Shown one piece after another: positions 13,895-62,513 of a stretch of 64,000 nt of DNA; position 1 is the stretch's first letter, and each line of letters begins with the position of its first letter. The position numbers were made by a program, and so were the translations under genes. The notes beneath the pieces are model-generated. The model was not told the origin of the DNA and ran no database searches. It saw nothing but the letters and a program-made list of their open reading frames with translations. This stretch comes from an uncultured Mycoplasmatota bacterium. GTDB taxonomy: Bacteria; Bacillota_I; Bacilli_A; RF39; UBA660. The stretch spans positions 3,160-67,159 of the forward strand of contig CANTCQ010000007.1 in NCBI GenBank assembly GCA_947652325.1, in the 5' to 3' direction.

Positions 13895-15172
13895 TTAATT
13901 GATAACTTTTAAAGTATGGGCTTTATCTTTGTGAGTAGTGTGCAATAATTTTTTAGCCTTTTCACTTAATGGAGCATCTAAAAAATTTTTATATAATTCT
14001 TTTACTTCTTTATTTTCATAACTACTTCTTTTTTTTATTTGTTTATCTTCCTTATATAAATTTTTACATCTTTCGTCGATATATGTTTCCTCTTTTTGTT
14101 TTGGTAAAATAGGTTGTCCTCCACCACCAATACATCCATGTGGACAAGTCATTACTTCTATAAACTGATATTTTGAAAGAGAGGAATAGATATTTTTCAC
14201 CGTATGAAGTCCAATAATAACTGCTACATGTAACTTAATAGAACCTAAGTTAACTTCTGCTTCCTTAAGATTTTCTTTTCCACGTACACATTCTAATTGG
14301 AAAAAATTTTCAGGTGCTTTTTCTAGATTTAGTAAAAAATATGCGGTTCGAAGAACTGCTTCTGTAACACCACCACTTGTTCCAAAAATAAGGCCTGCTC
14401 CACTTCCTTTTCCAAGTAACGAATCAAATTCTTTTTCTTCAACCGTTTTTAAATTAATTCCTTGTTCTCGAATAAGATAAGCAAGTTCACTTGTTGTAAG
14501 TATATAATCGTTGTCGTCATTATTTCCTTTTTTTATCTCTGTTTTTTTAGAAACACAAGGTGCAATTGTAACCGTAACGATATCTTTTGCATTTAAGTTT
14601 TTTAAAGTAGCAAAGTAGTTTTTGATAATTGCTCCTTGCATACCAATTGGACTTTTGCAAGTAGATAGATGTCCTAAATCTTTTGGATAATATTTTTCCA
14701 TATAATTTACCCAAGAAGAGCAACAACTTGTATACATTGGCAAAATGCCCTTATTTTGTATTCGTGAAATAAGTTCACTTGCTTCTTCCATAATTGTTAC
14801 ATCTGCACCATAAGTTATATCAAAAACATAATCGAAGCCTAAAGTTTTTAAAGCACCTACTACTTTTTTTTCCAAAAATTCACCTGGAGCAAAACCAAAT
14901 TCATCTCCAATAGAAACACGAACTGCTGGAGCAATAGATACCACAACAATCTTTTCTTCATCATGAATATTTGCTAAAACCTCTTTATAATTATATTTTG
15001 GTACTAAAGCCCCCATAGGACATGTCAAAATGCACTGTCCACAATTTACACAATCATTTTTTGCTAAATGATTCAGTTCTGTACAAGTTTTTAAACAAGC
15101 ACCGCAGTTAATGCATTTTTCATTAATTCTTTGCAAGGATAAATTATCCTCACTCACCAATACTTTTGCCAT
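13895..15172 (-). CDS. [FeFe]-hydrogenase, small monomeric type with two N-terminal [4Fe-4S] ferredoxin motifs.
   Basis: H-cluster motifs TSCCSSW, APCVSKKTE and EVMTCPHGCIGGGGQP. Two CxxCxxCxxxCP clusters at the N-terminus. Confidence 0.85.
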   Translation of the reverse strand: MAKVLVSEDNLSLQRINEKCINCGACLKTCTELNHLAKNDCVNCGQCILTCPMGALVPKYNYKEVLANIHDEEKIVVVSIAPAVRVSIGDEFGFAPGEFLEKKVVGALKTLGFDYVFDITYGADVTIMEEASELISRIQNKGILPMYTSCCSSWVNYMEKYYPKDLGHLSTCKSPIGMQGAIIKNYFATLKNLNAKDIVTVTIAPCVSKKTEIKKGNNDDNDYILTTSELAYLIREQGINLKTVEEKEFDSLLGKGSGAGLIFGTSGGVTEAVLRTAYFLLNLEKAPENFFQLECVRGKENLKEAEVNLGSIKLHVAVIIGLHTVKNIYSSLSKYQFIEVMTCPHGCIGGGGQPILPKQKEETYIDERCKNLYKEDKQIKKRSSYENKEVKELYKNFLDAPLSEKAKKLLHTTHKDKAHTLKVIN

Positions 15173-37441: not shown

Positions 37442-37909
37442 CTACTTTGCATCTGTCGTTCCAAAGCCACCTATTCTTATGCCATCTGCTTGGTCATTGT
37501 CTACCAGTAAATATTTTTGAAATATAGCTTGTCCAATGACATCCCCTTTTTTGATTTCTATATCGTGGTCTAAAATATTATAATATTGAAAATAAAAGTG
37601 ACCATCGTTCGTTTCATTTTCATAATAATCTGCATCTATTACACCAATACTATTGCTCATTACTAAACCTTTTTTTGGCCCCGAGCTACGATTTACAAGC
37701 ATATACCATTCATCGTCTTGACAATATGCTTTTAATCCTGTTGGGATAAGTGTTGGTTTTCCACCTAGTTGAAATGGAGGAATTACTACATCCTCAGCAG
37801 CTTCTATATCATATCCTGCGGCATGTTTTGTCTTTCTTACAGGCAAATGAATGTCTTTATCTTCCCAACCTTTTGCTATTTCAAATCCTCTTATTTTTTC
37901 TTTTAACAT
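37442..37909 (-). CDS. dut: dUTP diphosphatase (dUTPase).
   Basis: Motifs AGYDI, RSSGPKKGLVMSNSIGVIDADY and C-terminal GGFGTT. Confidence 0.8.
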   Translation of the reverse strand: MLKEKIRGFEIAKGWEDKDIHLPVRKTKHAAGYDIEAAEDVVIPPFQLGGKPTLIPTGLKAYCQDDEWYMLVNRSSGPKKGLVMSNSIGVIDADYYENETNDGHFYFQYYNILDHDIEIKKGDVIGQAIFQKYLLVDNDQADGIRIGGFGTTDAK

Positions 37910-38484
37910 CTACAAACACTACTTTCTATATTATTTAATTCTTCTTTATTATGCTTTGCTATATCCGTATTATCAATATATAACACAATTTCTTTTTGTT
38001 CTAAAGATTTTTTTACGTCAATAATTCTTTGATTGGAACTTCCCACATAATGGAGTTTTTCATTGGCAAGCTTTAACACAAATCTTCCTTCCAATAAAAC
38101 ATCGATATTTTCTAAAATTTCTTTTAGATTTTTATCATCATGCATTTGCTCCATTAGTTCTTCCCATGTGTATCCTGTATAAGACCAAATGGTTTTATTA
38201 GGATATATTTTTTTTACATTGGTTACTAAATCGCGAATGTTTTTTCGATTTGGAATAAAGAGTGGATCCCCTCCTGAAAGCGTAAGTCCACTACACCAAT
38301 CGGTATCTAACTCCGCATAAATTTCTTTAATGGCATCATCATCAAAATCTACTCCATCGTTTTCATCCCAAGTAAGCGCATTTTGACAAGCTGGACAGTG
38401 ATGAATGCAACCACTTGTCCATAAAACTACACGAAGTCCTTCTCCGTTTAACATATCAGCTTTTGTTATATTATGATATTTCAT
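37903..38484 (-). CDS. nrdG: Anaerobic ribonucleotide reductase activating protein (radical SAM).
   Basis: GCIHHCPACQN cluster motif. It overlaps dut by 7 nt and follows nrdD. Confidence 0.85.
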   Translation of the reverse strand: MKYHNITKADMLNGEGLRVVLWTSGCIHHCPACQNALTWDENDGVDFDDDAIKEIYAELDTDWCSGLTLSGGDPLFIPNRKNIRDLVTNVKKIYPNKTIWSYTGYTWEELMEQMHDDKNLKEILENIDVLLEGRFVLKLANEKLHYVGSSNQRIIDVKKSLEQKEIVLYIDNTDIAKHNKEELNNIESSVCRC

Positions 38485-38494
38485 TTTTCTTCAC

Positions 38495-40651
38495 CTACAT
38501 TGACTTTCTTTCCGCTATTTCGGCCATTTTGGCTTTATTAAGTCTTGTATCTCCATGTACTCTTGAGTAAGATAAATATCCATTCATTCTATCAATTTTG
38601 GTAAGGTCAGAACTTCCACATTTAGGACAAGTATCCATATCTAATTCTTCATGTCCACAGTTACTACAGTATGCTAAGGATAAATTAACTCCTTCATAAA
38701 ATCCTTTTTCCATCGCTCTTTCAATATAGGTAGTCATGGCTTTTTTGTTGTAATTTAAATTGTAACGAACATATTGGATTCTGCCACCACGGAAAAGGTC
38801 CCAAAATCTTTCTTCTAAGTCTTGTTTTTGAACTCCTGTTATTTCCTCCCAAACGCCACAGTGGAAAGAATTACTTACGTATTCTCTTGAAGATACACCT
38901 TCTACAATTCCATATTTTTTTCTAAATTGTTCGACTTGAAGTCCACACAAATTTTCAGCTGGAGTTCCATAAATGGCATATAAAATATGGTCTTCTTTCT
39001 TAAATTCTGCAATTTTATCGTTAATGTATTTCATCACATCTAAAGAAAATGCACCATCTTCTACTAAAGATTTGCCATTGTAAAGTACTTGTAATTCGTT
39101 AAGCGCTGTAATTCCAAACGATGCTGTTGCTGCTTCTAATAATGGTTCAATATTATCGTTTTGTTTCAAATGCCCTTTATAAAATCCGCCTTCGCAATAT
39201 GCTAGTGGATTCGTGCTTGCTTTTTTCTTTCCTAAATATTTATAAGTCCGAATGTGAATTTTACGAATCATTTCTAAATAATAGTCAAGCACTTCATAAA
39301 AATCTTTTCTTTCTTCTCTGGCTTTTGCTAAAATCATAGGTAAATGAAGGGATACTGCTCCAATATTAAATCTTCCGATAAATATTGGTTTATCGTCTTT
39401 ATCCGCTGGTTCAAATCCTCCACGTTCAAAGTAAGGACTTAAAAAAGCACGACATCCCATTGGACTTACAACACGACCATATTTTTTATACATTTCGGGA
39501 ACGTATCCTTCTCCAGTTAAAGATAAATAATCTGGATACATGGTTTTAGAACTACATTCAATGGCTGCCAAAAAGTTTTCATACAATTCTTTTCCTTCTT
39601 TATGCAAATTTTTGTCATACAAAAAAACAAGTTTTGGAAATAAAGTTGGTTTTTTGAAGCCTTCACGTCCTTGTCCTTTTTGGTGTGTTTCTAAAATAGT
39701 TTTAGCAATCATACGACCAAAACGACTGGTGTCAATTCCAAATGTAAAGGTAACAAAAGGATAATCGCCACGGGAAGAACCAACACTGTTTAATTTATAT
39801 TCGATACCTTGATACCCTTGTTCACATTCTCTATGTGTTTTCTTTAACGCATAGGCCTCTGCCCCTTCTGAATCGCCATCCTCTCCTTTAATATCTAAAT
39901 ACTCTTGGTAATATTTCCGATAGGTTTTTTCAGCATAAGGAGTGAGTATACTATCTACTTCAGGAACAGTAAATCCTCCGTATTGCATAGCAGCTGTATT
40001 TATGACAACATCTCCCATAACATCAAAGGCTGTATCCAAGGTCTTTGGTTCAGTGTACCAAAGATTTCCCATTTCAAATCCACCTTTCATAATAGCCCCA
40101 ACATCACATAAGCAACAGTTCATTGTATCGCGTCTTGCACTCATATCGTGTACATAAATATAACCATCTTCACAAGCCTCTACTTCCGCTGTTGTTAGAA
40201 AAAATTTTCTATATAATTCTTTATTTAAAGAACCATATACTAAACTTCTTTGAGTAGCTACTAAAGCACTATCCGTATTTGAATTTTCTTTATCTCCAAT
40301 ATAATTTATAGCTTGAGCTTTTTTATATACTTTATCTAAAATATGAACAAATTCTTTTTTATAATTTCTATATTCACGGTAACTTTTGGCCACTAGCGGA
40401 TTTACTTTTTCTAAAGCGGCTTCTACACAATTGTGAATTTGTTGTACTTCAGGATTTGTTGTTTGATTTTTTAAAAAATCAAGCACAATCGATACAACTT
40501 CATCTTCAGCTTCTGGAGTTAACTCTACCATTACTCTTTCGGCACTTTTTTGAATAGCGGATTTTATCTTTTCAGCATCAAATTCTTGTTGGTTTCCATT
40601 TCTTTTTACAATTTTTATTTTTGCGGCAATCGCTGCTTCTTTTTTATTCAT
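38495..40651 (-). CDS. nrdD: Anaerobic ribonucleoside-triphosphate reductase (class III RNR).
   Basis: N-terminal ATP-cone and a C-terminal CxxC...CxxC zinc ribbon next to the glycyl-radical region. 718 aa. Confidence 0.9.
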   Translation of the reverse strand: MNKKEAAIAAKIKIVKRNGNQQEFDAEKIKSAIQKSAERVMVELTPEAEDEVVSIVLDFLKNQTTNPEVQQIHNCVEAALEKVNPLVAKSYREYRNYKKEFVHILDKVYKKAQAINYIGDKENSNTDSALVATQRSLVYGSLNKELYRKFFLTTAEVEACEDGYIYVHDMSARRDTMNCCLCDVGAIMKGGFEMGNLWYTEPKTLDTAFDVMGDVVINTAAMQYGGFTVPEVDSILTPYAEKTYRKYYQEYLDIKGEDGDSEGAEAYALKKTHRECEQGYQGIEYKLNSVGSSRGDYPFVTFTFGIDTSRFGRMIAKTILETHQKGQGREGFKKPTLFPKLVFLYDKNLHKEGKELYENFLAAIECSSKTMYPDYLSLTGEGYVPEMYKKYGRVVSPMGCRAFLSPYFERGGFEPADKDDKPIFIGRFNIGAVSLHLPMILAKAREERKDFYEVLDYYLEMIRKIHIRTYKYLGKKKASTNPLAYCEGGFYKGHLKQNDNIEPLLEAATASFGITALNELQVLYNGKSLVEDGAFSLDVMKYINDKIAEFKKEDHILYAIYGTPAENLCGLQVEQFRKKYGIVEGVSSREYVSNSFHCGVWEEITGVQKQDLEERFWDLFRGGRIQYVRYNLNYNKKAMTTYIERAMEKGFYEGVNLSLAYCSNCGHEELDMDTCPKCGSSDLTKIDRMNGYLSYSRVHGDTRLNKAKMAEIAERKSM

Positions 40652-40778: not shown

Positions 40779-41423
40779 ATGCATAATTTTAAGCAAAAAA
40801 AATTAACTGATTTACAAATAGAAGTCATGTCAAACTGTGTCAATATAAAAAAGAAAACATTTAAAACCGGAGAATACATTTTAAGTTTTGGATTAAGACA
40901 AAAAATGATAGGACTTGTAGCTGTGGGAAAAGCCGATATTATTCGTATCGATATTGATGGAAATGCTTCTGTTATTAAAAAGTTAATTCCTGGAAGTATT
41001 TTTAACGATGCTTTTTCCTGTTTTTCGAATACTTCCACTTTTGTAATAAGCCGAACAGATACAGAAATTTATTTTATTGATTATGCCCAAATCATGACGA
41101 ATTGCTTAATGAACTGCAAATATCATCATCAAATGATACAAATCATTTTAGAACTTTTAACGGAAAATACTATTATTTTAAATGAAAAAATCGAAATTTT
41201 AAGTTATCCGAAAATTCGTGACCGTATTTTATCTTTTTTATCTATCAAAATGGAAGATATTCATACACAAAGCATTACCCTTCCCTTTTCTATTACAGAA
41301 TTTGCAGAATTTTTATGTGTAGATAGAAGTGCTTTAATGCGTGAACTTAAAAAAATGGAGAGTGATGGAATTATTAGGCGCCATAATAAAACCATTACTT
41401 TATTAAACGTTTCACATTACTAA
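40779..41423 (+). CDS. Crp/Fnr-family transcriptional regulator.
   Basis: cNMP-binding-like beta-roll and C-terminal HTH (FSITEFAEFLCVDRSALMRELKKME). Start MHNFKQKK after GGGAGG. Confidence 0.75.
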   Translation: MHNFKQKKLTDLQIEVMSNCVNIKKKTFKTGEYILSFGLRQKMIGLVAVGKADIIRIDIDGNASVIKKLIPGSIFNDAFSCFSNTSTFVISRTDTEIYFIDYAQIMTNCLMNCKYHHQMIQIILELLTENTIILNEKIEILSYPKIRDRILSFLSIKMEDIHTQSITLPFSITEFAEFLCVDRSALMRELKKMESDGIIRRHNKTITLLNVSHY

Positions 41424-42177
41424 TGGCATTCTTTTCGATTCTAGAGACTTGGGCTTGAGAAATGCCCAAACTTTGTGCAATTTCCATTTGGGTTTTGCCA
41501 ATAATGAAACGTTCAACAAGTACATTTCGTTCTCGTGTTTTAATTTTGTTAATAGCACGCCTTAAAGAAATGAGCATATCTTTGTCTTCTCTCATATCTT
41601 TTTTATCCGCAATTTGGTCTAGTAAATAAATGGTATCTCCACCATCATTATAAATTGGTTCAAAAATACTCATGGGTTCCTTTAAACTGTCTAGTGCAAA
41701 GTTAATTTGGTATTCTTCTATTTCTAATGCTTTTGCTATCTCTTTATTTGTAGGTTCCACTCCATTTGTTTTTAGACAATCTTCTTTATATTTTATAATC
41801 GAATATGCTAAGTCTTTTATACTTCTACTTACGCGAATGGAAGTATTATCTCGGATATATCTTTTGATTTCTCCCACAATTAAAGGAATAGCATAAGTTG
41901 ATAATTTTAAATTATAAGATAAATCGAAATTATCGATAGCTTTTATTAAACCAACAACTCCGACTTGAAACAAATCATCTAAATTGTATTTTTCTTTATT
42001 AAACTTCTTTAAAACGCTTAATACCAGTTTTAAATTTCCTTCTACGAGTTCATCTTTCGCTTTCACATCTCCTGCTTGATACCGTTTAAAAAGTTCAACC
42101 ATTTCTTTTTGTTTTAATACTTTAAGATTACTTGTATTTACATTGGTAATGTCCACTTTATATTTACTCATAAACAA
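41395..42177 (-). CDS. sigG: Sporulation sigma factor SigG (forespore late).
   Basis: Sigma-70 regions 2-4. It is immediately downstream of sigE in the conserved spoIIGA-sigE-sigG cluster. Confidence 0.85.
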   Translation of the reverse strand: MFMSKYKVDITNVNTSNLKVLKQKEMVELFKRYQAGDVKAKDELVEGNLKLVLSVLKKFNKEKYNLDDLFQVGVVGLIKAIDNFDLSYNLKLSTYAIPLIVGEIKRYIRDNTSIRVSRSIKDLAYSIIKYKEDCLKTNGVEPTNKEIAKALEIEEYQINFALDSLKEPMSIFEPIYNDGGDTIYLLDQIADKKDMREDKDMLISLRRAINKIKTRERNVLVERFIIGKTQMEIAQSLGISQAQVSRIEKNAISNVKRLIK

Positions 42178-42240
42178 AAGCTCCTTTCATAGTTGTTTTG
42201 CTATGAAAAGAGCTTTTTTATTCTTTTTTTTGCTTTTTTA

Positions 42241-42930
42241 TTATGTTTTTAATAAATTTTTTAAATTTTTAATTACTTTTTTTTCAATTCTTGATATATA
42301 TGATTGACTAATTCCAAGCATTTCTGCTACTTCTTTTTGAGTATATTCTTCTGTATTATTTAAACCGTACCGTAAAACCATAATTTGCTTATCACGGGGT
42401 TCTAGTTTATTGATTTCGCTTGCAAGCATCCTTTTATCCATGGAATTTTCAAATTCTTTAATAACAATATCTTCTTCTGTTCCCAAAATATCTTCTAAAT
42501 GCAATTCATTTCCTTCGGAATCATAATTTAAAGCATCTTCAAACGATATTTCTGTTTTTCTTCTTTTGTTTTTTCTTAAAAACATTAAAATTTCATTAGC
42601 AATACAACGCGAAGCATAAGTAGCAAGTTTAATGTTTTTATCAATTTTATATGTATTAATCCCTTTAATTAAACCAATGGAACCAATACTCACTAAATCT
42701 TCAATGTCATATCCAGCGCTCTCATACTTTTTTGCTAAAAATACGACCAATCGTAAGTTGTGTTCAATTAACGAATCTCTCGCACTTTCATCGCCTTCTT
42801 TTAATCGAATTAAAAGAGAAAGCTCTTCTTCTTTACTCAAAGGTGGGGGGAGTTTATCTGTACTTCCCACAAAGAAACATTCTGCGTATTTTTTCCTTAA
42901 CCACAAAATGATTTTTTTAATTATATTCAT
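42241..42930 (-). CDS. sigE: Pro-sigma-E (mother-cell early sigma factor precursor).
   Basis: The N-terminal pro-sequence ...YAECFFVGSTDKLPPPLSKEEE is typical of pro-sigmaE. Sigma-70 r2-r4 follow. Confidence 0.9.
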   Translation of the reverse strand: MNIIKKIILWLRKKYAECFFVGSTDKLPPPLSKEEELSLLIRLKEGDESARDSLIEHNLRLVVFLAKKYESAGYDIEDLVSIGSIGLIKGINTYKIDKNIKLATYASRCIANEILMFLRKNKRRKTEISFEDALNYDSEGNELHLEDILGTEEDIVIKEFENSMDKRMLASEINKLEPRDKQIMVLRYGLNNTEEYTQKEVAEMLGISQSYISRIEKKVIKNLKNLLKT

Positions 42931-43715
42931 GATAGTTCCTCCATTAATTTATTATTTAATATGCATTCTACACCTTCTAAAGAAAATTTTTTGTCGCTTA
43001 TACCAAGCAAATAATTTTTATAAGTTTTTCCTTGTATTTCTACTCTTTCTGGTTTTAAACATTTTATTAAGTTGTGATTATTTAAACTATTAAAAGGAAC
43101 ATAATAATATTTTATATTTTCCTCGTTTATTACTCCCTTTTGGAGCAAAATAATGGGCTTATTTGTTATGGGGTCAACGAGTTTATTTCCTGTATCTAAA
43201 AAACCATGAAGTGTATATTTTTTTTTCTCTTTTAAAATAATTGTCACTTCATAAATCAAATTATAATTACTTTTCATTTTTTTTGCTTGCCTATAATAAA
43301 TATATAATATAACAGGGGAAAAAATGATTAAAAAAATAGCATTTATATTAAGTCCTTTATTTATAAAGATAAGTCCAATGTGGGAATAACTGAATTCTAA
43401 ATTTAAATAATATAAGAATCCTCCTAAAATGACACTAATCATGTAAAAATACCCAAAATTATTTACAAAATATTTTATATCTTTAAAACCAAATGTAAGA
43501 ATGTTCATCAAACAGGCTAGTCCTATTTTAAAGAAAAAAAGAAGAATATTATTGGTATTCCAAAATAAAAACAAAGTAGAGAGACTTCCTACGATGGCTC
43601 CCAAACCTATTTTTTTTAGTGGGGCACTTCTTTTTAATACAATAGAAGTTGTCATTAAAAGAAGAAAGTCTAAGTATAAGTTTAAAATAAGAACTAAATC
43701 TATGTAGACTTTCAT
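42927..43715 (-). CDS. spoIIGA: SpoIIGA pro-sigma-E processing aspartic protease.
   Basis: Five N-terminal TM helices and C-terminal HGFLDTGNKLVDP (DTG). Start MKVYIDLV with RBS AGGTGAT. Confidence 0.85.
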   Translation of the reverse strand: MKVYIDLVLILNLYLDFLLLMTTSIVLKRSAPLKKIGLGAIVGSLSTLFLFWNTNNILLFFFKIGLACLMNILTFGFKDIKYFVNNFGYFYMISVILGGFLYYLNLEFSYSHIGLIFINKGLNINAIFLIIFSPVILYIYYRQAKKMKSNYNLIYEVTIILKEKKKYTLHGFLDTGNKLVDPITNKPIILLQKGVINEENIKYYYVPFNSLNNHNLIKCLKPERVEIQGKTYKNYLLGISDKKFSLEGVECILNNKLMEELS

Positions 43716-43776
43716 ACTATCACCTAAAAGAAGTATACAAAAAAACAACATAAAATTATGTTGTTTTTTGTATTAT

Positions 43777-44871
43777 TTAAAATCCATTGTGATTTCTTAA
43801 AAATGGTGGGATATCATATTCTGAATCAAAATCTTCTTCCCTATTTCTTCCTCTATTTTTTTGTTCACGTTGTCCATATTGTGGTTCATCATCACGACTG
43901 CTAGATGTTTGTTTTCCATCAAATCCAGTTGCAATAACGGTTACAATAACTTCTTCATTTAAATTAGAGTTAGGTATTGCCCCAAAAATAATATTGATAT
44001 CGTTATTTGCAGCAGAACGTACGGTTTCTACAGCATCTTCAATTTCAAATAAAGTTAGAGAATCTCCTCCTGTGATATTAATAATAGCATCTGTAGCTCC
44101 TTCTATAGTTGTTTCCAGAAGAGCACTTGATACAGCTTGTTCTGCAGCTTCAACAGCTCGATTTTCACCAACACCCATTCCAATACCAATCAAAGCGGTT
44201 CCTGATTTTTCCATAACAGTTTTAACATCTGCAAAATCTAGGTTAATAATTCCAGTTACTGCAATTAAATCAGAAATGGATTGTACTCCTCTATGTAATA
44301 CGTTATCTACTTCTTTGAAAGCATCTTGAAAACTTGTTGTTTTGTCAATAATATCGCGTAGACGGTCATTTGGAATAATGATTAATGTATCCACGTGTTT
44401 TTTAAGTTCTTCTAAGCCTACTAAAGCATGTTCCATTCTTCTTTTTCCTTCAAAACGAAATGGTTTTGTAACAATTCCCACTGTTAAAGCTCCTAAATCT
44501 TGCGCTATTTCTGCAATAACTGGAGCTGCTCCTGTACCTGTTCCACCACCTAAACCACAAGCAATGAAAACCATATCTGCCCCACGAATAGCATTTTCAA
44601 TTTCAGATTTACTTTCTAAAGCTGCTTCCCTACCTACTTCTGGATTAGAACCAGCTCCACGACCACCTGTAATATTTTCACCAATTTGAATTTTATGTGG
44701 TGCACGTGATGCATCTAGCACTTGTTTATCTGTATTTACTACGTAAAATTCAACACCTTGTACACCTTCTTCTATCATTCGATTTACTGCATTACAGCCG
44801 CCACCACCAGCACCAAATACTTTTATTTTCGCAATTGGGTTTATTTTTAATCCGTTACTTATCCCGTCCAT
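43777..44871 (-). CDS. ftsZ: Cell division protein FtsZ.
   Basis: GGGTGTG tubulin signature. Confidence 0.95.
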
Positions 44872-44883
44872 AATACACTCTCC

Positions 44884-46128
44884 TTAATTATCGAAAAAAT
44901 ATCCAAATAATTTTCCTAAAATGGAATTATCAGATATATTGATTTTTTTATGTTTTCCACTCAGTTCTTCTTGTTCCTCTACACTAAATATAGAAATCTC
45001 TTTTCCACGCAATTCTAATTTACTATTGTAAAACTTAATTAAGCCTAAACAAGCAGAATATTTATTATTTCGAACTCCAATTTCTTGTATCTTTCCTATT
45101 TTAGCACTTCTGCCAAAAATACTTTCAAGTGTTAGTTCAAAATCAGGCATCTCGCTTACGCCGCCCGTTACTATTATATAATGAATTTCTTTTTTTGTTA
45201 AGTGATTAATTTGATTTTTTGCAACATTTAAAATTTCTTCTAAGCGGCTCATTATAATTTCACTTAATTCATATTGATTTATGGAAATACTTTCCCCTAA
45301 CTTATTTGTAACAATTGCTGATGCTGTTGCTTGGGCCATTCTTTTATGAGCTAATCCTAAATTTTCTTTTAAATACCTTGCATCATTCTTCGTTACTTTA
45401 TATATAAATGATATATCATTATCAATATTTTGTCCACCCATTTCAATCACATTTGTATTTGTTTCAACTCCTTTATTAAAAATAGATACTGTTGTTGTTG
45501 CCTCACCAATGTTAATAATTGCTCCTACTAAATTATCCATTTTTTCATTTCGAAGAGCGTAATAATCTCCATTAGAAGTTAAAGCAATATCCATTATTTC
45601 TACTCCTATTTTTTCAAAACTTTCTAACAAGGCATGCACATTTTCTTTCGGAATAATAGAAGATACTGTCTTTACAGTTAATTTATTTGCTACACAATTT
45701 AATGGATTTTTAATAGGCTCCTCGTTATTTATTTTAAATCCTGCTGGAACAATACTTACAATTTCTTTTTCTGGTGGAATACGATTGTAAACCGATGCTT
45801 GCATAGCCCTTACAATATCAATTCCTTTTACTATTTTATCCTCATTGGTAATAGAAGTACTTCCTTCACTCATTAAAAATTCTGTTTGAAAACTTGGAAC
45901 GGTCACAATCATTTTTCGAATACTTAAGCCTAGCATGTCTTCTGCTTTTTTTATCGTTGCTTTTAAAATAGGCATTAATACTTCTTTGTTTACAATTAAT
46001 CCTTTTTTTATTCCTTTTGCCTCTGTTTCCGCAACTGCTAAAATATTGGTTCTATATTTTTGGATTTCCGCAACAATTATTTTAATTGAATTGGTTCCAA
46101 TATCCATACTGGCTATGATTTTTCTCAT
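44884..46128 (-). CDS. ftsA: Cell division protein FtsA.
   Basis: Actin-fold ATPase. IASMDIGTNSIK phosphate-1 motif. It sits upstream of ftsZ. Confidence 0.9.
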   Translation of the reverse strand: MRKIIASMDIGTNSIKIIVAEIQKYRTNILAVAETEAKGIKKGLIVNKEVLMPILKATIKKAEDMLGLSIRKMIVTVPSFQTEFLMSEGSTSITNEDKIVKGIDIVRAMQASVYNRIPPEKEIVSIVPAGFKINNEEPIKNPLNCVANKLTVKTVSSIIPKENVHALLESFEKIGVEIMDIALTSNGDYYALRNEKMDNLVGAIINIGEATTTVSIFNKGVETNTNVIEMGGQNIDNDISFIYKVTKNDARYLKENLGLAHKRMAQATASAIVTNKLGESISINQYELSEIIMSRLEEILNVAKNQINHLTKKEIHYIIVTGGVSEMPDFELTLESIFGRSAKIGKIQEIGVRNNKYSACLGLIKFYNSKLELRGKEISIFSVEEQEELSGKHKKINISDNSILGKLFGYFFDN

Positions 46129-46198: not shown

Positions 46199-47899
46199 TT
46201 AAAAAACTCCATTCCAAGATTCATGTGTTGGTTTATTTGCTGGGCTTTTATAAAACATATTTGATATTTGAGAACTGGATTGTCGTATAAAATTATTTCC
46301 ATAATTGATTTGATTCAAGTTTTTGCATTCATAAAACATTTCAGTCATATCTGTTACATTGCTTGTATCAAAATTACTTATATCTAAATTAATTAAATTT
46401 TCTCTTCCATAAAACATACGTCGCATGTTGGTTACTTTATTGGTATTAAAATTACTTAAATTTAAATTTGTTATTTTACTACGATTATTAAAATTATCAT
46501 AAAACATTTCTTCCATATTTGTTACGTTACTTGTGTTAAAATGGCTTATATTTAAGTTTACTAAACTTGGACAAAGCCCAAACATTTGTCTCATATTTGT
46601 TACATTACTTGTATCAAAGCTACTTAAATTTAAATTAACTAAATTTCGACTATTATAAAACATACCAAACATATTTGTTACATTACTTGTATCAAAGCTA
46701 CTTAAATTTAAATTAACTAAATTTATGTCACCAGCAAACATATTAGACATATCTTTTACTTTGCTCGTATTAAAATTACTTACATCCAAATCAGTTAATC
46801 TTTCACACGCGAAAAACATACCAGACATATTTGTTACATTACTCGTATCAAAATGGCTTACATCTAAATTTGTTATGTGATTACTCCCTTGAAACATACC
46901 AGACATATTTGTTACATTACTTGTATCAAAATTACTTAAATCTAAATTAATTAAATTTATGTTAGAACGAAACATACCAGACATATTTGTTACATTACTC
47001 GTATCAAAATATTCTAATCCTTCAATACTTTCTAAATAATAAAAACTTTCAAATAACATTCTACTATTAGAAGGTGCTTTAACCCCACCTTCACTTTGTA
47101 TATATAAAGTATATTTTGATGCGTTATTTTCATTCGGAACCAAATAACCCATAACACTTCCATCCGAATTTTCAGATAAATTAAAGCTTTCTATAACATT
47201 TTCTTTAGAATGCATTTCGGGTTCAAATACTATCTTTGTAATAGTATTTTGATACTTTAACGACCAAAAAGCTTCATACTGTTTATAAGCCATCATTGTT
47301 CCTCTAGCATCATAATTATCATCTATGACTCCTGTAACACTTATTTTTCCGATAAGATTTTTGTTCATAACATCATCTTCCATTGTAACGTTTTCATCTA
47401 ACCATAATTTTAAAGTATATGTTTTACTTTCTCCTATTCCTAAAGAATCAGTAGTTAGTTCATAAGCTTCTATAGCTTTTTTGTTATTTTCTTCATAAGT
47501 AGGTTCTACACTTGTATATTCTTTTAATTTTTGTATTTTTTTCTCATTAAAATTTGTATGGATATATTCACTTGAAAGTTGATTTTCTACTTCTAGTATT
47601 TCTAAATTCACACTATAACTTACTGCTAAATTACAAGTATTTTTTACTCTAAATGTATAGGGAACTAAACTTTTTGCTTCTTCTTTAGTTAATGGATAAG
47701 CATTTTTTAAACTAATAGCACTATTCTCTACATCTTCTATTATTACTTGTAAACAATTACTGGTTATTTTATTAATGCTTTCTTGATAGGCAGTATGAGT
47801 CCATAATGCATAACTGACACCTAGTGCTACTCCTATTATTGTTATGATTCCGATTATAAGTAAAAATATTTTTGTTTTCTTTTTGTATTTTTCTTTCAT
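46199..47899 (-). CDS. Surface protein with BspA-type leucine-rich repeats. Its N-terminal module is paralogous to 12152..13762.
   Basis: About nine ~22-aa repeats of the form L.NL.[LI]S.FDTSNVTNM.GMF. N-terminal signal-anchor plus the AYPLT..PYTFRVKNTC..YSVNLE module. Confidence 0.75.
   Translation of the reverse strand: MKEKYKKKTKIFLLIIGIITIIGVALGVSYALWTHTAYQESINKITSNCLQVIIEDVENSAISLKNAYPLTKEEAKSLVPYTFRVKNTCNLAVSYSVNLEILEVENQLSSEYIHTNFNEKKIQKLKEYTSVEPTYEENNKKAIEAYELTTDSLGIGESKTYTLKLWLDENVTMEDDVMNKNLIGKISVTGVIDDNYDARGTMMAYKQYEAFWSLKYQNTITKIVFEPEMHSKENVIESFNLSENSDGSVMGYLVPNENNASKYTLYIQSEGGVKAPSNSRMLFESFYYLESIEGLEYFDTSNVTNMSGMFRSNINLINLDLSNFDTSNVTNMSGMFQGSNHITNLDVSHFDTSNVTNMSGMFFACERLTDLDVSNFNTSKVKDMSNMFAGDINLVNLNLSSFDTSNVTNMFGMFYNSRNLVNLNLSSFDTSNVTNMRQMFGLCPSLVNLNISHFNTSNVTNMEEMFYDNFNNRSKITNLNLSNFNTNKVTNMRRMFYGRENLINLDISNFDTSNVTDMTEMFYECKNLNQINYGNNFIRQSSSQISNMFYKSPANKPTHESWNGVF
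46596..46735. repeat. Near-perfect ~66-bp tandem duplication inside the LRR coding region.
   Basis: ...catatttgttacattacttgtatcaaagctacttaaatttaaattaactaaattt... occurs twice in direct succession. Further diverged copies occur through 46380-47000. Confidence 0.7.
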
Positions 47900-50376: not shown

Positions 50377-51855
50377 CTATATGACAATTGTAATTAAATT
50401 GCTTGACCCTTTATTGACAATCTTCGTTACTGTTTGGCTTAGTTTATAACGCATATTTTCGGGCATTACAGACAATTTTGCTTGAATTCCTTCTTTTACA
50501 ATTACATCTAAACTACGGCCAAATATTTCACTTTTCCAAATACTTCCAGGGTCTACTTCATAATCTTTCATTAAATAGTTAATAAGTTCTTTACTTTGTA
50601 ATTCACTTCCAATAATAGGTTCAAAAGTAGATTCTACATTTACTTTCATTAAATGAATGCTTGAGGCTACTGCTTTTAATTTTACTCCATAACGAGAACC
50701 TTGTTTTACAATTTCTGGTGTAGATAAAGTCATATCTTTTAAACTAGGATACACAATACCATATCCAGTACTTTTAGCCATTCGTAAGGCTTCTTTCATT
50801 CCATCTAGCTCTTCTTTTCCTTCTTTGTAACTTGCAAATATTTTTAAAAGACCTGCTTTGGTTGTTACCATATCGCCCATTAAATCTTTTAAAACATCAT
50901 TATAGAGTTCATCGCTACTTTCAAGCGTAATTGTTATTACTCCTGTTGAAGTATCTACTTCGCTAATGTAACTTTTTGAAATAATTTCCGAATCATTAAA
51001 CAATCCCAATATATTATCTACATCGCGTATTTTATTAACAGAAATAACACTTTCTTTTATTTTTTCTAGGTAATATTTCTTTATATAATGATTATTATCT
51101 AAAACATGTACCCATTTGGGAATTTGAACATTAATATCTAAAACAGGAAATTCATACAAAGCCTCTTTTAAAACATTTAAAATTTCTGGTTCTTCCATTT
51201 CTGTTGCATTAAGAGGAATAACAGGAACTTCATACGTATTTCTAAGTTCATGAGCCAAATTGTTAGCAGTTTCACTGTTTTTGTTTTTTGTGTTTAGTAC
51301 CACAATAAATGGTTTACCAAGTTCCTTTAATTCAGCTACAATTTTTTCTTCAGCTTCTATGTAATTTTCTCTTGGGATTTCTCCAAACGTTCCATCAGAA
51401 GTCATCACAATGCCAATGGTTGCATGGTCTTTAATTACCTTTTCTGTTCCAATTTCTGCCGCTTCATAAAAGGGTACAGAATCTTCAAACCATGGTGTTT
51501 TTACCATTCTTGGATTTCCATCTTCATCTACATGGCCATTTGCTCCTTTTATAACAAACCCGACACAGTCTACTAACTTTATATTCGTTGAGAATTCTCC
51601 TACTTTTATTGTAGCACCACTGGAAGGTACAAATTTGGGTTCAGTTGTCATGATGGTTTTTCCTTCTGCACTTTGAGGGATTTCATCTAAGCATTTTCTT
51701 TTTTCATATTCATCTTCAATGTTTGGAACCACTAAATTTTCAATAAAACGTTTGATAAAAGTTGATTTACCACATCGTACGGCACCAACTACACCTAAAT
51801 ATATTTCACCATTACCACGAGTTGCAATGGATTTAATTATTTCACTTTTTTCCAT
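50377..51855 (-). CDS. spoIVA: Stage IV sporulation protein A (spore coat basement-layer ATPase).
   Basis: Walker A GVVGAVRCGKSTF, 492 aa, next to hup as in Bacillus. Confidence 0.9.
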   Translation of the reverse strand: MEKSEIIKSIATRGNGEIYLGVVGAVRCGKSTFIKRFIENLVVPNIEDEYEKRKCLDEIPQSAEGKTIMTTEPKFVPSSGATIKVGEFSTNIKLVDCVGFVIKGANGHVDEDGNPRMVKTPWFEDSVPFYEAAEIGTEKVIKDHATIGIVMTSDGTFGEIPRENYIEAEEKIVAELKELGKPFIVVLNTKNKNSETANNLAHELRNTYEVPVIPLNATEMEEPEILNVLKEALYEFPVLDINVQIPKWVHVLDNNHYIKKYYLEKIKESVISVNKIRDVDNILGLFNDSEIISKSYISEVDTSTGVITITLESSDELYNDVLKDLMGDMVTTKAGLLKIFASYKEGKEELDGMKEALRMAKSTGYGIVYPSLKDMTLSTPEIVKQGSRYGVKLKAVASSIHLMKVNVESTFEPIIGSELQSKELINYLMKDYEVDPGSIWKSEIFGRSLDVIVKEGIQAKLSVMPENMRYKLSQTVTKIVNKGSSNLITIVI

Positions 51856-57698: not shown

Positions 57699-58235
57699 CT
57701 ACTTCAAATATTCCTCATCAATCTCTTCGATTGCTTCTTCTTCTTTTTCACTTAAAATGTCTTCATCCGTAATAATTTCATATTCATCTTCCTCTTCTTC
57801 GATTGAAACTTTTATTTTTGTATCTCCTACTACTTCTACTCCAAGTTCTTTTTCTACATTTAATTTTACAATACCTTCATTTACAGATACATTGGTAACT
57901 GTTGGTTGTTTTAAACTCCTTACAATAATTTCTTCTTTGTTTGTAAGAGTCATATTATCCTTTAGATGTACTGGCATTTTTTCTTGATAACTAAAAGAAT
58001 TGTTTGTAACAGCTGTTTTTGTATCATTATCATAAGAATACCAAACATTTACATCAAATGTTCCTTCAATGTTTACAATACCTCCATTATTTCTTCCTTG
58101 AAACTGGTGGTTAATCACCCAACACCCTAAAATAGTGTCTGGTCTTAATTCTGGTGTAATTGTAAAATTTGATGTACTGGTTTTTTTAGCTTTTCCAATA
58201 ATTGCTTTTGTTACTATCTCTTTGTAATTTGCCAT
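57699..58235 (-). CDS. cotE: Spore coat morphogenetic protein CotE.
   Basis: The N-terminus MANYKEIVTKAIIGKAKK...FTITPE...ILGCWVINHQF...NVWYSY.D.TKT is collinear with B. subtilis CotE, and the tail is acidic. Confidence 0.8.
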   Translation of the reverse strand: MANYKEIVTKAIIGKAKKTSTSNFTITPELRPDTILGCWVINHQFQGRNNGGIVNIEGTFDVNVWYSYDNDTKTAVTNNSFSYQEKMPVHLKDNMTLTNKEEIIVRSLKQPTVTNVSVNEGIVKLNVEKELGVEVVGDTKIKVSIEEEEDEYEIITDEDILSEKEEEAIEEIDEEYLK

Positions 58236-58351
58236 TTTCGTAACCCTCCTCTATTTTAATGTATGCTACTCTATAGTATTTGTTCACATTCCTTTGCTAT
58301 TTTTATACTTTTGTGCTAGGATAAATTCTACATTTATTTAGAGGGGGTATT

Positions 58352-59209
58352 ATGAAAAAAATTTATTTAAACGAACAAGAAATTTTAAAATATCCTTTGT
58401 ATACTAAAAATAAAACAAATGAAGCTGAAGTACGAATATTTAGTTCAACAGAACTGATGAAGATTTTTCATTTTTATAGTCAAAACAAAGTAGATACTTT
58501 GTATTTACTTAATAAGTATCAGAATGATTTAGCTTTGGTTTCTGAATTTATTCTCTTTAAAAAATATATATACAATAAAAAGGATTTGTTACAAGGAATA
58601 CTTATAAATAAAGGTTATAAAATAAATTTACGAACACTTCTACAGGAGGGGTACAACTTTTCTTTTAATGATTTAATAGTTACTTTACAAAATGTAGGGA
58701 AAGTATTAGAAAAATTAAAATATATTCGTAATCATGAAAATAAATTAACTACTTTTTTTATTGGCGATTTGCAAGAGAGTAATATTTTGGTGGATATCCA
58801 AACAAAAAAGATTCAAATTATCGATTTAGATAGTTGCAAAATTGAGAATAATCGTGCTTTTGCTGCTAAATATTTAGAGTTTTTAAAAACATATTTTTAT
58901 GTAAGAGAAAATTTACAAGAAAAATATCCTTGGGATGGTTATCATTTTTCGAATAATGAAAATACAGACCTTTATTGCTATACTATGATAATTTTGAGAT
59001 TTTTATTTGGTGTGGATATAATGTTACTCGATTTAAATGCTTTTTATAACAAAATGTATGATTTAAAACAAGATGGTCTTCCAGATAGCCTGTATCAAAT
59101 TTTTATAAACCTTTATAACCATGTACCTAATCAAAATCCTTATCGGCTTTTGGATTTTATCCCCTCTTCTTTTGAAAGAAAAAGAGATTTGCATACACAA
59201 AAACAGTAA
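58352..59209 (+). CDS. Protein kinase-like fold protein (APH/CotS-type phosphotransferase-like), tentative.
   Basis: FFIGDLQESNILVD resembles the catalytic loop HGDLHxxNIL, and IQIIDLDS resembles the DFG/IDxD metal-binding motif. 285 aa, next to cotE. Confidence 0.4.
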   Translation: MKKIYLNEQEILKYPLYTKNKTNEAEVRIFSSTELMKIFHFYSQNKVDTLYLLNKYQNDLALVSEFILFKKYIYNKKDLLQGILINKGYKINLRTLLQEGYNFSFNDLIVTLQNVGKVLEKLKYIRNHENKLTTFFIGDLQESNILVDIQTKKIQIIDLDSCKIENNRAFAAKYLEFLKTYFYVRENLQEKYPWDGYHFSNNENTDLYCYTMIILRFLFGVDIMLLDLNAFYNKMYDLKQDGLPDSLYQIFINLYNHVPNQNPYRLLDFIPSSFERKRDLHTQKQ

Positions 59210-59228: not shown

Positions 59229-61019
59229 TTATTCATACCAACTATTCTCAATATTGACGTTGCTACTTGCTGGCATTGGGTCTGGTAAATTTAATTTAGT
59301 TAATAATGGAACCCGAAAAGCTGTTCCAAAGACTAAAGCAGTCCCAGGTCTTAAGGTTTTTAATTTTTCAATATCTTGAGAGGTCAAATTACTAGAAATG
59401 GAAATTACTATATTTAAATCTTCTGGATGGAAAATACGATAGATTAAGAAGTTTGAACATTGTGATAAACAAGTTGTAGATAATTCACTTGGTCTTTGGG
59501 TAACAAAACCAAGTATTACCCCATATTTTCTTCCTTCTTTGGTAATTCTATCAAAAATGTTGTATCCAATTATATTGATATCGTTGTCATTTTGAACATA
59601 ACGATGTGCTTCTTCAATTATAATATGAATTGGAAAACTTGCTCTTTTTTCTAAAGATGTTGCAAAATCAAAAAACAATTTCATGTATAATTTAGTTAAA
59701 ATTTTAGCAAATCTTTCATCTACATAATTAAAATTCATATTTAAAAGTTGGACATATTCGACTTGATTTGTTAAAAACATACTTTTTACGAATTGCTCTT
59801 TTTTTATAAATTCACCTTTGTATTCAAAGTATTTTGATAGACCACTATTTAAAATAGAATGCATACGTACACGTAAATCGTTTGCTTTTTCATAAAGAGT
59901 AGCGTTATTTAGCATTCCTTCACTCATAAGTGCAAATTCTAAAGCATTGTATATATCTTCTAAGGTATAAGTAAGTTCTGTTTTCTCTATTTCAAAAGTT
60001 TCTATAGTTGTAAATGTATTTAAAAATTCAATAATGAATTGTAATGCTCCCATTTTTCCTTGTGAATCTATATTTAAGCATTGTTTTAAAGTTCTAGTAT
60101 ATCCTGGTTGCACGATAGCACTTTCTAAATTTAACTCTGGCGTATTAAATTTATTTAAAGTAGAAATAATTTGGTCACTTAATTGAGTAGAGGATTTTCC
60201 ACTTCCAATAATATCTAGCAAACTTTTGGCAATGATAGAATTTTTATATTTTATGGCTTTTTCTCCTGCTCCATGAAAAATAGCAACGTATTGTAAAGTT
60301 TTTTCCAAAATAGGAAGTAAAGTATGGTCATTTACATTAAGTAGAATAGCTAAATCATCTACTTCTAAAAAATAAGGAGGTATACTTACAATTTCGGATG
60401 ATACTTCATCTATATCTGTTTTAGTTGTATAGTATTTTACATTAATATTTGGAAAATTATTAATTTTCGTTAAGGCCGCATGGTATTCTCCATAAATATC
60501 AAATATTACTATATGCGCATTTTTAGGTATTTTGTTATTATAGTAAAATATATTTTGAATGAGACTTGCAACACCGCATGATTTACCGCAACCAGAATTT
60601 CCAATAATTGCAAAATGTTGATTAAAAAAGTCATTCATCTTTGCTGTTATTTTGTAGCCATCATATAAAGTGGATGCCCCTATTAAAAGATTTTCAGAGG
60701 ACATATACTCTTGGGAACCAATTATTAATTCTAATTCTTGTTTGTAAACAATTCGACAGTTACTTGTAATACTTGGATATTTCGTGGCCCCTGAGATAAA
60801 AGTATTTTCTTTTATTTCTCCAATTAATAAAATCGTAATTTCTTCTTCATTCATTCCAGAAATTTCTCCCACTATTTTAGGAGAAGTCGATGTACCTGTA
60901 TCTAATTCTTCAAACACTACATGAAAATTAATAACGTTTGCTTGAATCATTTTTGTTTTATTTTCTATTTTTACTACTTTTTCATCTATTTTTACAATTT
61001 TTCCAAACATACTAGTCAC
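59229..61019 (-). CDS. HerA/FtsK-superfamily (DUF87-like) P-loop ATPase, 596 aa.
   Basis: N-terminal beta-barrel-like region, Walker A GNSGCGKS, Walker B IIIEEAHRY and the VTQRPSE motif typical of HerA-like ATPases. No TM segments. Confidence 0.65.
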   Translation of the reverse strand: MTSMFGKIVKIDEKVVKIENKTKMIQANVINFHVVFEELDTGTSTSPKIVGEISGMNEEEITILLIGEIKENTFISGATKYPSITSNCRIVYKQELELIIGSQEYMSSENLLIGASTLYDGYKITAKMNDFFNQHFAIIGNSGCGKSCGVASLIQNIFYYNNKIPKNAHIVIFDIYGEYHAALTKINNFPNINVKYYTTKTDIDEVSSEIVSIPPYFLEVDDLAILLNVNDHTLLPILEKTLQYVAIFHGAGEKAIKYKNSIIAKSLLDIIGSGKSSTQLSDQIISTLNKFNTPELNLESAIVQPGYTRTLKQCLNIDSQGKMGALQFIIEFLNTFTTIETFEIEKTELTYTLEDIYNALEFALMSEGMLNNATLYEKANDLRVRMHSILNSGLSKYFEYKGEFIKKEQFVKSMFLTNQVEYVQLLNMNFNYVDERFAKILTKLYMKLFFDFATSLEKRASFPIHIIIEEAHRYVQNDNDINIIGYNIFDRITKEGRKYGVILGFVTQRPSELSTTCLSQCSNFLIYRIFHPEDLNIVISISSNLTSQDIEKLKTLRPGTALVFGTAFRVPLLTKLNLPDPMPASSNVNIENSWYE

Positions 61020-61117
61020 CCTATTCTTTTAATAGAATATCATAAAATTTTAGAAAATTAAATAGATAAAAAATCAACTTTATTTCTTTTACAAAAAAAA
61101 GAAGGTTGTTCCTCCTT

Positions 61118-61255
61118 TTAATATACGCCGTATCCGCTAAATCCTGCAAAGATTATTGCTAACAATATAAATAATACGATTATGATTAAAGCTGAACTTA
61201 TTCCTTGATTATTGTTATTGCAGCAATTGTCTTGATTTTTTTTACAGCAATTCAT
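61118..61255 (-). CDS. Tiny Cys-rich transmembrane protein (45 aa), YjcZ-like / tiny_TM_bacill family.
   Basis: RBS AAGGAGGTG 9 nt before ATG. MNCCKKNQDNCCNNNNQGISSALIIIVLFILLAIIFAGFSGYGVY: Cys-rich head, one TM helix, G/Y tail. Not in the ORF track (<60 aa). Confidence 0.7.
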   Translation of the reverse strand: MNCCKKNQDNCCNNNNQGISSALIIIVLFILLAIIFAGFSGYGVY

Positions 61256-61286
61256 TTAATTGGACACCTCCTTATATTTTTAAAGA

Positions 61287-61379
61287 CTAAATGAAAGCCC
61301 CTACAATGATAATGAGTAAGATAAATAATACAAGTATAATAGCTGGACCAAGTCCGTTATTGCAGCAACCATGATTCAT
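61287..61379 (-). CDS. Tiny Cys-rich transmembrane protein (30 aa), tandem paralogue.
   Basis: RBS AGGAGG 8 nt before ATG. MNHGCCNNGLGPAIILVLFILLIIIVGAFI. Confidence 0.7.
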   Translation of the reverse strand: MNHGCCNNGLGPAIILVLFILLIIIVGAFI

Positions 61380-61502
61380 AATTTCATTCCTCCTTTATTT
61401 GTCTTTTCATTTATATTGTATGGTAAGTTTTGTAGTTGGTGAGTGTTCTTCTTGTATTTTTTTTTTAAATTCGTTATAATAATTATTGTTTAGGAGGATT
61501 TT

Positions 61503-62513
61503 ATGAAGAAAAAAATAATTGTACTTGGTTTATGTAGTTTAATGATATGTGGATGCGGTAAAACAATACCGAAGCTGGAAAATGGAAGTGATGCAATCGT
61601 TAGTTTTTCCAATGGAGAAAAAATAAGCATTGATGATTTATACAATGATTTAAAAAATAACTATGCTTTGGAGTCTCTTATTAGTTTAGTCGATAAGAAA
61701 ATATTAGAAGATAAATATAAAGACAATTTAAGTAGTGCAACTGAATATGCAGATGCGACTATGAAATCTCTAGAAGAAAATTATGGAGAAGATTTACTTA
61801 GTGCCATTCAAAGTTATACTTCTTTTTCTACTGTAGAAGCCTATAAAAATTATGTTTATATTAGTTATTTACAAAATCAAGCTATTGAAGATTATGCTAA
61901 AAATCAAATACAGGAAAAAGAATTAAAAGAATATTACGAAAAAAGCATTTATGGAGATGTTTTGGTTCATCATATACTTGTGACACCTAATGTAAAAGAT
62001 GGAGCAACAGCAGAAGAAAAAACGGCTGCTGAAGAAGAAGCGAAAAACAAAATAAATACGGTTATTGCGAAATTAAAAGAAAGCGATAATATAAAAGATA
62101 CTTTTGCTTCTCTTGCTAAAGAATACTCCGAAGATACTTCTACAAAAGATGAAGGAGGTTCTCTTGGATATATTAATGATGGAACACTTTCAAGTAGCTA
62201 TGATGAAATTATAAAAAATGCTTTTAAGTTAAAAGATGGAGAATACTCAACTGAAATAATTACTACAGAACTAGGCTACCATGTTATTTATCGTGAAGCA
62301 TCAAAAGAAAAAGCAAAATTTGAAGATGTAGTAGATAGCATTCGTGAAACGTTAGGAAAAAAACTCTTAAGTGAAGATACCACAATTAATACAAAAGCAA
62401 TGCAAAATATTCGAAAAGAATATGGAATGGATATTATTGATAGCGAAGTACAAAATCAATATGCAAGATATATTCAAAATGCTCTTTCTCAAAAACAAAA
62501 TACAACTAACTAA
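61503..62513 (+). CDS. prsA: PrsA-like foldase lipoprotein (parvulin-type peptidyl-prolyl isomerase).
   Basis: Lipoprotein signal LGLCSLMICGC. Parvulin motifs VHHILV, GGSLGYI and ELGYHVIY. Confidence 0.8.
   Translation: MKKKIIVLGLCSLMICGCGKTIPKLENGSDAIVSFSNGEKISIDDLYNDLKNNYALESLISLVDKKILEDKYKDNLSSATEYADATMKSLEENYGEDLLSAIQSYTSFSTVEAYKNYVYISYLQNQAIEDYAKNQIQEKELKEYYEKSIYGDVLVHHILVTPNVKDGATAEEKTAAEEEAKNKINTVIAKLKESDNIKDTFASLAKEYSEDTSTKDEGGSLGYINDGTLSSSYDEIIKNAFKLKDGEYSTEIITTELGYHVIYREASKEKAKFEDVVDSIRETLGKKLLSEDTTINTKAMQNIRKEYGMDIIDSEVQNQYARYIQNALSQKQNTTN

Follow-up and report, generated by a model that had tools for sequence, protein, structure and literature searches.

The locus described here raises a simple question: what do two very short open reading frames (ORFs), lying one behind the other on the same strand, encode, and what might their products do? 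They sit within a 64,000-nucleotide (nt) stretch of DNA from an uncultured Mycoplasmatota bacterium (contig CANTCQ010000007.1 of assembly GCA_947652325.1, hereafter the window), and we refer to them as orfA and orfB. An initial sequence-only reading had proposed two tandem unlisted genes for tiny peptides of 45 and 30 amino acids (aa) between positions 61100 and 61400, each with a strong Shine-Dalgarno (SD) sequence. Both ORFs are indeed present, now placed on the minus strand, and each has a strong SD at the same distance from its ATG (Table 1). The two are genuine genes and form one self-contained operon. Our favoured reading, to which we assign a probability of roughly 0.6, is that this is a late-sporulation mother-cell operon of two YjcZ-family micro-proteins, which would be coat-associated and carry cross-linkable heads.

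Relatives were collected by scanning species-representative genomes with the neighbouring HerA-like protein. This gave 22 loci from uncultured gut Bacilli, labelled by NCBI as Bacilli, Tenericutes or Erysipelotrichaceae metagenome-assembled genomes (MAGs), from rabbit and mouse. More distant relatives were found via the protein database and their contigs then read, and 12 loci were analysed in detail. An A-then-B pair lies between the prsA-like and HerA genes in 5/5 loci where those two genes adjoin. The pair, with both SDs, is found in 12/12 of the loci analysed in detail, and further metagenome loci agree. Wherever the flank of a related locus is readable the layout is constant: a divergent prsA gene, a promoter, SD-orfA, SD-orfB and a terminator. 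A metagenome scan aimed at Bacillus-type members yielded 8 loci only, all of the same broad clade as the window.

Across 6 genomes whose HerA proteins are 54-80% identical, orfA does not vary in its C-terminal 21 residues, and its last 21 codons carry up to 16 synonymous and no non-synonymous differences between genomes. As all of the codon changes in this core are synonymous, which we regard as decisive, selection on the orfA protein is indicated. The frames, starts, SDs and stops of both ORFs are kept in loci whose HerA-like and PrsA-like neighbours are only ~34-57% identical to those of the window. For orfB there are 11 relatives at 70-93% identity; its SD reads (A)GGAGGTG in the loci closest to the window, and in 12/12 loci a site of SD type (AGGAG, GGAGG or GGGAG) stands 7-12 nt ahead of the ATG. 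Conservation in related genomes, the lack of which would by the terms of the sequence-only reading have refuted it, is thus borne out, and the comparison indicates that purifying selection acts on the genes.

A profile search returned 628 relatives at E<=0.01, which fall into two types. A-type peptides are 28-32 aa long and end in ...AIILVLFILLIIIVGAFI, and B-type peptides are 36-47 aa long, a Cys/Lys/Asn head preceding FI(I/V)L(I/V)LFILLAII. Compared with each other using hhalign, the two profiles match at 98.1% (E 9e-14). Several of the relatives, from MAGs of Bacilli, Anaeroplasmataceae and Acholeplasmatales, are already named by NCBI as 'sporulation protein YjcZ' or as 'YjcZ family sporulation protein'. 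Against the NCBIfam model of the YjcZ family, TIGR01732 or tiny_TM_bacill, orfA scores 22.1 bits and passes the cut-off of 21.35; its orthologues score 18.4-21.8 bits, near the cut-off, and the orthologues of orfB reach at most 13 bits. Sub-threshold matches to TIGR01732 at E<=1 were seen for 14/30 B-type members, the best at 5e-5. YczN of Bacillus subtilis (sequence taken from PMC4196992) scores 44.3 bits on the same model; its matches, over short hydrophobic segments, are 95.7% (E 1e-8) with the B-type profile and 95.2% (E 3e-8) with the A-type. Searching the profile against the Protein Data Bank gave only a chance match to PsbK (E 0.21) and no relative of solved structure.

The earlier suggestion that the peptides belong to a YjcZ-like family therefore holds in substance: orfA passes one of the two curated models, and orfB is tied to the family by the profile comparison and the weak matches of its relatives. 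Judged from these comparisons, both peptides are YjcZ-family homologues, orfA as a borderline formal member and orfB as part of a divergent branch largely overlooked by the curated models. They add new members, specific to this clade, to a family that is known and often annotated, and is functionally obscure. YjcZ-family peptides are among the commonest annotated bacterial proteins of <=50 aa (sORFdb preprint), and their genes are among those most strongly induced in sporulation (PMC12756439); the function of the family has been described as unclear.

The alignments indicate that the two peptides of the operon are paralogous, each with a single, very hydrophobic helix behind a short disordered head rich in Cys and Asn. 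They also confirm the common architecture that had been proposed: in both, a head of this kind is followed by the VLFILL helix and a short tail. Within the core of the helix, every aligned type, YczN among them, has L-x-I-L-L without change, and conservation of V and F is at least 90%. For orfB, AlphaFold2 predicts a disordered head and a helix at residues 17-42, the pLDDT (predicted local distance difference test) being ~90 for residues 21-40. The Cys content of the heads is 15.6% in B-type and 9.4% in A-type peptides, compared with a background of 1.28% in the long ORFs of the window, and 93/93 B-type heads have at least one Cys. The head of YczN is Gly/Tyr/Ser-rich and has no Cys, and Clostridia-like relatives have MYYYGGY heads, some together with Cys-rich tails. 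On this comparison the Cys/Asn-rich heads are specific to the present clade. Since YczN has a Gly/Tyr-rich head where the clade has Cys, the alignments suggest that the head is a module open to cross-linking, with a chemistry that differs between lineages.

A single YjcZ-like gene with a Gly/Tyr-rich head, MFGYGGFGGYGGGCYGG..., was also seen at 2944-3081 of a contig from GCA_900198705.1 (locus L042), and its flanks contain no prsA-like match. As this contig carries another kind of YjcZ-like gene, the pair with Cys-containing heads seems to be one subfamily among several.

Since spoIVA, cotE and a spoIIGA-sigE-sigG cluster lie in the window, the host is, genetically, an endospore former, and this low-GC (~28%) gut lineage as a whole looks like one from its gene content. 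In the sequence-only reading an element upstream of the genes had been likened to a sigmaK-type -10, and this resemblance is strengthened by the comparison. An arrangement of AC, 16 or 17 nt and CATAnnnTA stands 45-60 nt ahead of the orfA ATG in 11/12 loci; the remaining locus, L031, has one mismatch (CGTACAATA). The -10 reads CATAC(A/T)ATA or CATAAAATA in the related loci. Both blocks and their 16-17 nt spacing are kept as the sequence of the spacer varies from locus to locus, which is the expected footprint of a two-part promoter. The short -35, 10-nt -10 and 14-16 nt gap of the B. subtilis sigmaK consensus have been described in previous work, in which yjcZ and the P2 promoter of cotE were found to be sigmaK-dependent (PMC517825).

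Within the window CATACAATA occurs once, and one copy is the chance expectation. The full promoter pattern is not enriched window-wide either (4 matches, 2.8 expected); 2/4 matches lie directly upstream of sporulation genes, namely the peptide operon and cotE. The cotE match, AC-16 nt-CATACATTA, is at 58257-58283 (minus strand), ~22 nt ahead of the ATG. Another match, AC-16-CATACTTTA, lies at 13910-13936 (minus strand), ~150 nt upstream of a 536-aa ORF (12152-13762, minus strand) that has no Pfam match; by its upstream motif this ORF may be another mother-cell-expressed gene.

Downstream of the operon promoter, AAAGACAAAT within the conserved leader fits the SpoIIID consensus, WWRRACAR-Y, and is a possible SpoIIID box. 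Alternatively, the leader GAAAAGACAAATAAAGGAGG might act in transcription start or in stability. At the other end of the operon, a hairpin and U-run are found at the same place 3' of orfB in 12/14 loci, with differing stem sequences.

From these observations we infer sigmaK dependence, a localisation, cross-linking and a role in coat assembly for the peptides, as follows. The mother cell would transcribe the operon late in sporulation via sigmaK RNA polymerase and, given that both SDs are strong, would make the two peptides in large amounts. Through the helix the peptides could then partition or insert into the outer forespore membrane or its interface with the inner coat, or self-associate there, after which disulfide or metal-mediated links would hold the thiol-rich heads in the coat. 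The head residues available for cross-linking would be Cys in this clade and Gly/Tyr in Bacillus. Anchored in this way, the peptides might aid the assembly of coat proteins, by analogy with what has been reported for SscA/SscB.

Several observations weigh against this reading. With respect to the family, orfA falls below the threshold of the Pfam model PF09680, YjcZ_2 (14 vs 21 bits), orfB matches neither this model nor TIGR01732, and hidden Markov model (HMM) and HH scores of short hydrophobic helices can be inflated by composition. The positions of the Cys residues drift within the heads, and as they are not conserved a defined metal site is argued against. With respect to the promoter, no sigK gene lies within the window, and CATACAAT fits the sigmaE -10 consensus too. 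On the motif evidence the promoter is of sigmaK type, and sigmaK is favoured over sigmaE because the conserved -35 is AC without ATA and L001 has CATACTATA; the region upstream of spoIVA offered no clean sigmaE reference site.

Throughout an entire uncultured gut lineage, a fixed A/B pair is kept beside prsA, behind a clean promoter of sigmaK type. The pair also gives a comparative handle on the family, with a helix that is invariant and a head that is variable yet always cross-linkable.

Table 1. Positions of the two genes, their candidate control elements and other features of the window.
Feature	Position	Strand	Remarks
orfA	61287..61379, including stop TAG	minus	30 aa; A-type YjcZ-family peptide by profile comparison, MNHGCCNNGLGPAIILVLFILLIIIVGAFI
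orfB	61118..61255, including stop TAA	minus	45 aa; divergent B-type YjcZ-family peptide by profile comparison, Cys/Lys/Asn-rich head, MNCCKKNQDNCCNNNNQGISSALIIIVLFILLAIIFAGFSGYGVY
orfA Shine-Dalgarno AAGGAGG	61395..61389	minus	9 nt ahead of ATG
orfB Shine-Dalgarno AAGGAGGTG	61273..61265	minus	9 nt ahead of ATG at 61255
-35 block ACACTCAC	61439..61446	minus	Final AC is the sigmaK-type -35; AC lies 16-17 nt from -10 in 11/12 loci
-10 element CATACAATA	61414..61422	minus	sigmaK-type CATAnnnTA; 16 variable nt after ACACTCAC
Conserved leader GAAAAGACAAATAAAGGAGG	61389..61408	minus	Ends in orfA SD; near-identical in window, L001, L005, L016, L021, L022, L026
Intrinsic terminator	61089..61119	minus	9-bp hairpin overlapping orfB stop, then 8 U; -9.8 kcal/mol, z = -2.2
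prsA-like lipoprotein peptidyl-prolyl isomerase gene	61503..62513	plus	Pfam Rotamase, Rotamase_3; divergent from the pair
HerA/DUF87-like ATPase	59229-61019	minus	596 aa; upstream of cotE and rpsP, an order shared by about half of the related loci
285-aa ORF	58352-59209	plus	Between HerA-like gene and cotE; no Pfam match; variable or absent in relatives
cotE	57699-58235	minus	
spoIVA	50377-51855	minus	
ftsA-ftsZ-spoIIGA-sigE-sigG cluster	41395-46128	minus	
566-aa protein	46199-47899	minus	Three DUF285 repeats ('Mycoplasma protein of unknown function'); between ftsA and M50/PDZ protease gene

The neighbours of the pair in the window are the PrsA-like, HerA-like and RecX genes. It had been noted from the sequence that the pair adjoins cotE and a HerA-like ATPase, and both are near in the window; this linkage is not conserved. 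The pair is upstream in 5/22 HerA loci, exactly the 5 that also have prsA. As the pair adjoins HerA only where prsA is there too, the conserved link is to prsA. The divergent prsA-like gene is adjacent in every locus for which the flank is available, usually with recX beyond it, and shares with the pair a control region of 120-250 nt. The gene on the other side of the pair varies, and may be HerA-like, an ABC (ATP-binding cassette) transporter, Bac_transf or of no known kind.

This arrangement is what would be expected if the peptides were partners or clients of the PrsA-like foldase, that is, membrane subunits that modulate it, anchor it or depend on it at the outer face of a sporangial membrane. 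The tight linkage would in that case express a common function and not a gene order passed on by descent. The prsA-like gene is the sole invariant neighbour, always divergent across the shared control region, and the far-side genes change from locus to locus. We nevertheless consider such a partnership unlikely. The peptide operon owns a conserved sporulation-type promoter, whereas prsA shows by eye a TATAAT preceded by TTGTAT (a scan with the sigma-70 consensus reported no site there). The orfA peptide has practically no extramembrane C-terminus and the heads are disordered, and stable ancestral synteny would explain the adjacency equally well. The prsA gene of B. subtilis is presumably BSU09950, which would put sscA/sscB beside it, so that the same order may hold there; a paper search for BSU09950 gave no match.

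Given their very small size, extreme hydrophobicity and single helix, and the strong translation signals of their genes, the peptides could also be membrane-damaging, similar to type I toxins or holins, and might permeabilise the mother cell late in sporulation, aiding lysis and spore release; a late mother-cell promoter would suit the timing of lysis. However, there is no sign of an antisense or overlapping RNA gene, or of an antitoxin: an Rfam scan of the window found nothing in the orfA-orfB region (its one match was a tRNA elsewhere), and the region, its opposite strand included, has fewer sigma-70-like sites than shuffled sequence. The SDs of both genes are unobstructed as well as strong. 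In B. subtilis a fusion of the spore peptide SscA, discussed below, is stably built into spores (PMC13417171), and one face of the helix (VLFILL) is extremely conserved from this clade to Bacillus, which suggests specific packing and not a general disruption of membranes. A damaging role therefore appears improbable.

The Cys-rich N-terminal regions might alternatively mark the peptides as precursors of Cys-containing modified or secreted peptides, such as bacteriocins or ribosomally synthesised and post-translationally modified peptides (RiPPs). One B-type relative matches a radical-SAM RiPP peptide model at E 0.024, and an ABC transporter follows the pair in L026-L028. That match is far below significance, however, and the conserved neighbours include no modification enzyme, protease or immunity gene, nor does any of the changing far-side genes encode a modification enzyme. 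RiPP precursors usually have a conserved leader and a variable core, and the peptides show the reverse layout, with a conserved hydrophobic C-terminal helix and a variable Cys head; by eye they contain no double-glycine-type leader cleavage motif. We therefore regard a precursor role as very improbable.

Finally, chance reading frames in AT-rich intergenic DNA, with a conserved element that is non-coding, might be suspected from the shortness of both frames, the frequency with which gene callers skip orfA and the failure of the exact orfA and orfB peptides to match anything in a collection of 15 billion proteins, but this is effectively refuted by the purely synonymous substitutions in orfA, by the persistence of frames, starts, SDs and stops among loci with diverged neighbour genes and by the matches to curated family models. 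A tblastn search of plasmids with orfA gave no match.

The pair is also of value for annotation, given that several contig records either lack a call for orfA or start it at a spurious ATG further upstream, and that A-B joins appear in catalogues. The A-type gene is often missed altogether by callers, as in L023, L026, L030 and L033, leaving a gap between prsA and the called B gene. Database proteins P0056, P0065, P0106 and P0110 start at an ATG inside the conserved leader and so acquire spurious MKRQIKGGS... extensions. A further ~12 entries of 68-81 aa (P0012, P0018, P0020, P0021, P0024, P0025, P0029, P0033, P0034, P0038, P0085 and P0104) have the appearance of A and B fused in frame through a linker such as 'IQGGVNM', and were considered as candidate Rosetta-stone fusions. 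The underlying DNA was compared for L029 only: at 1131-1367 it has a TAG stop at the position of the protein's Q and does not translate to the query, and the fusion reading was rejected. The L029 'fusion' is a gene-calling artefact in which a recoded-stop table reads the orfA TAG as Gln. In the window TAG is the stop of 8/37 long ORFs; each of the three stop codons serves as a stop, and the genetic code is therefore the standard bacterial one.

In public databases the nearest genomes carry the labels uncultured Tenericutes, Anaeroplasmataceae, Acholeplasmatales or Erysipelotrichaceae. Genes for an [FeFe]-hydrogenase and the anaerobic ribonucleotide reductase NrdD/NrdG are also present in the window (13895-15172 and 37903-40651, both minus strand), which indicates that the host is a strict anaerobe.

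Among known systems, the closest to the pair is the YjcZ family itself, represented by YjcZ and YczN. The shared features are a size of 25-50 aa, one hydrophobic helix and the core (A/F)(L/I)I(V/L)VLFILL(I/A)I(I/V)G. The family is restricted to endospore formers and its genes are often in tandem; here two adjacent copies occur in a host with spore genes. A sigmaK-type promoter is likewise common to the pair, for which it is predicted by motif, and to yjcZ, a member of the sigmaK regulon (PMC517825). The differences are equally clear. The heads are rich in Cys and Asn (and Lys) in the pair, whereas those of B. subtilis YczN are Gly/Tyr/Ser-rich and Cys-free. The pair is a fixed, heterotypic A-then-B arrangement where other members form arrays of near-identical copies, and it differs in its constant adjacency to prsA. 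In addition, orfB and most B-type relatives stay under both curated thresholds.

SscA and SscB of B. subtilis (YhzE), known as small spore coat assembly proteins, resemble the pair in being encoded by tandem genes for tiny hydrophobic peptides. The genes sscA (BSU09958, 1,071,402) and sscB (BSU09959, 1,071,613) lie in tandem ~200 bp apart and carry the annotation 'spore assembly and germination protein' (PMC5743806); both appear in a listing of GerE-activated genes and have been deleted jointly as sscAB (PMC12613536). SscA is a very highly expressed hydrophobic peptide of 28 aa, about the size of orfA. Its loading onto spores is safA-dependent, which places it in the inner coat, and its loss results in less CotB, CotG and CotH in spores (PMC13417171). 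Late mother-cell expression under GerE and sigmaK would parallel the sigmaK-type promoter predicted for the pair. Localisation to the coat and a coat-assembly phenotype are known in B. subtilis only, for SscA. The parallel in size, tandem layout, late mother-cell control and possibly position is our best functional lead, by analogy, and offers a plausible bridge from the pair to the only characterised candidate relatives, of which the two genes may be orthologues.

A bolder version of the favoured reading is also conceivable, although we hold it to be doubtful. In this version A and B would be an obligate heteromeric module that has stood beside prsA since before the split from Bacillaceae and represents the ancestral form of SscA/SscB. 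The helices would pack together at the outer forespore membrane, and the thiol heads would form a latch, triggered by redox state or metal, to secure the inner coat at mother-cell lysis, Cys replacing the Gly/Tyr chemistry of Bacillus.

A more distant comparison is with SpoVM, a mother-cell peptide of 26 aa that anchors SpoIVA to the forespore membrane. Like the role proposed for the pair, that of SpoVM is played by a tiny mother-cell peptide at the forespore surface during coat morphogenesis. SpoVM differs, however, in being sigmaE-dependent and unrelated in sequence, and in forming an amphipathic surface helix, whereas the helices of the pair are fully hydrophobic, of membrane-spanning length and preceded by a sigmaK-like promoter.

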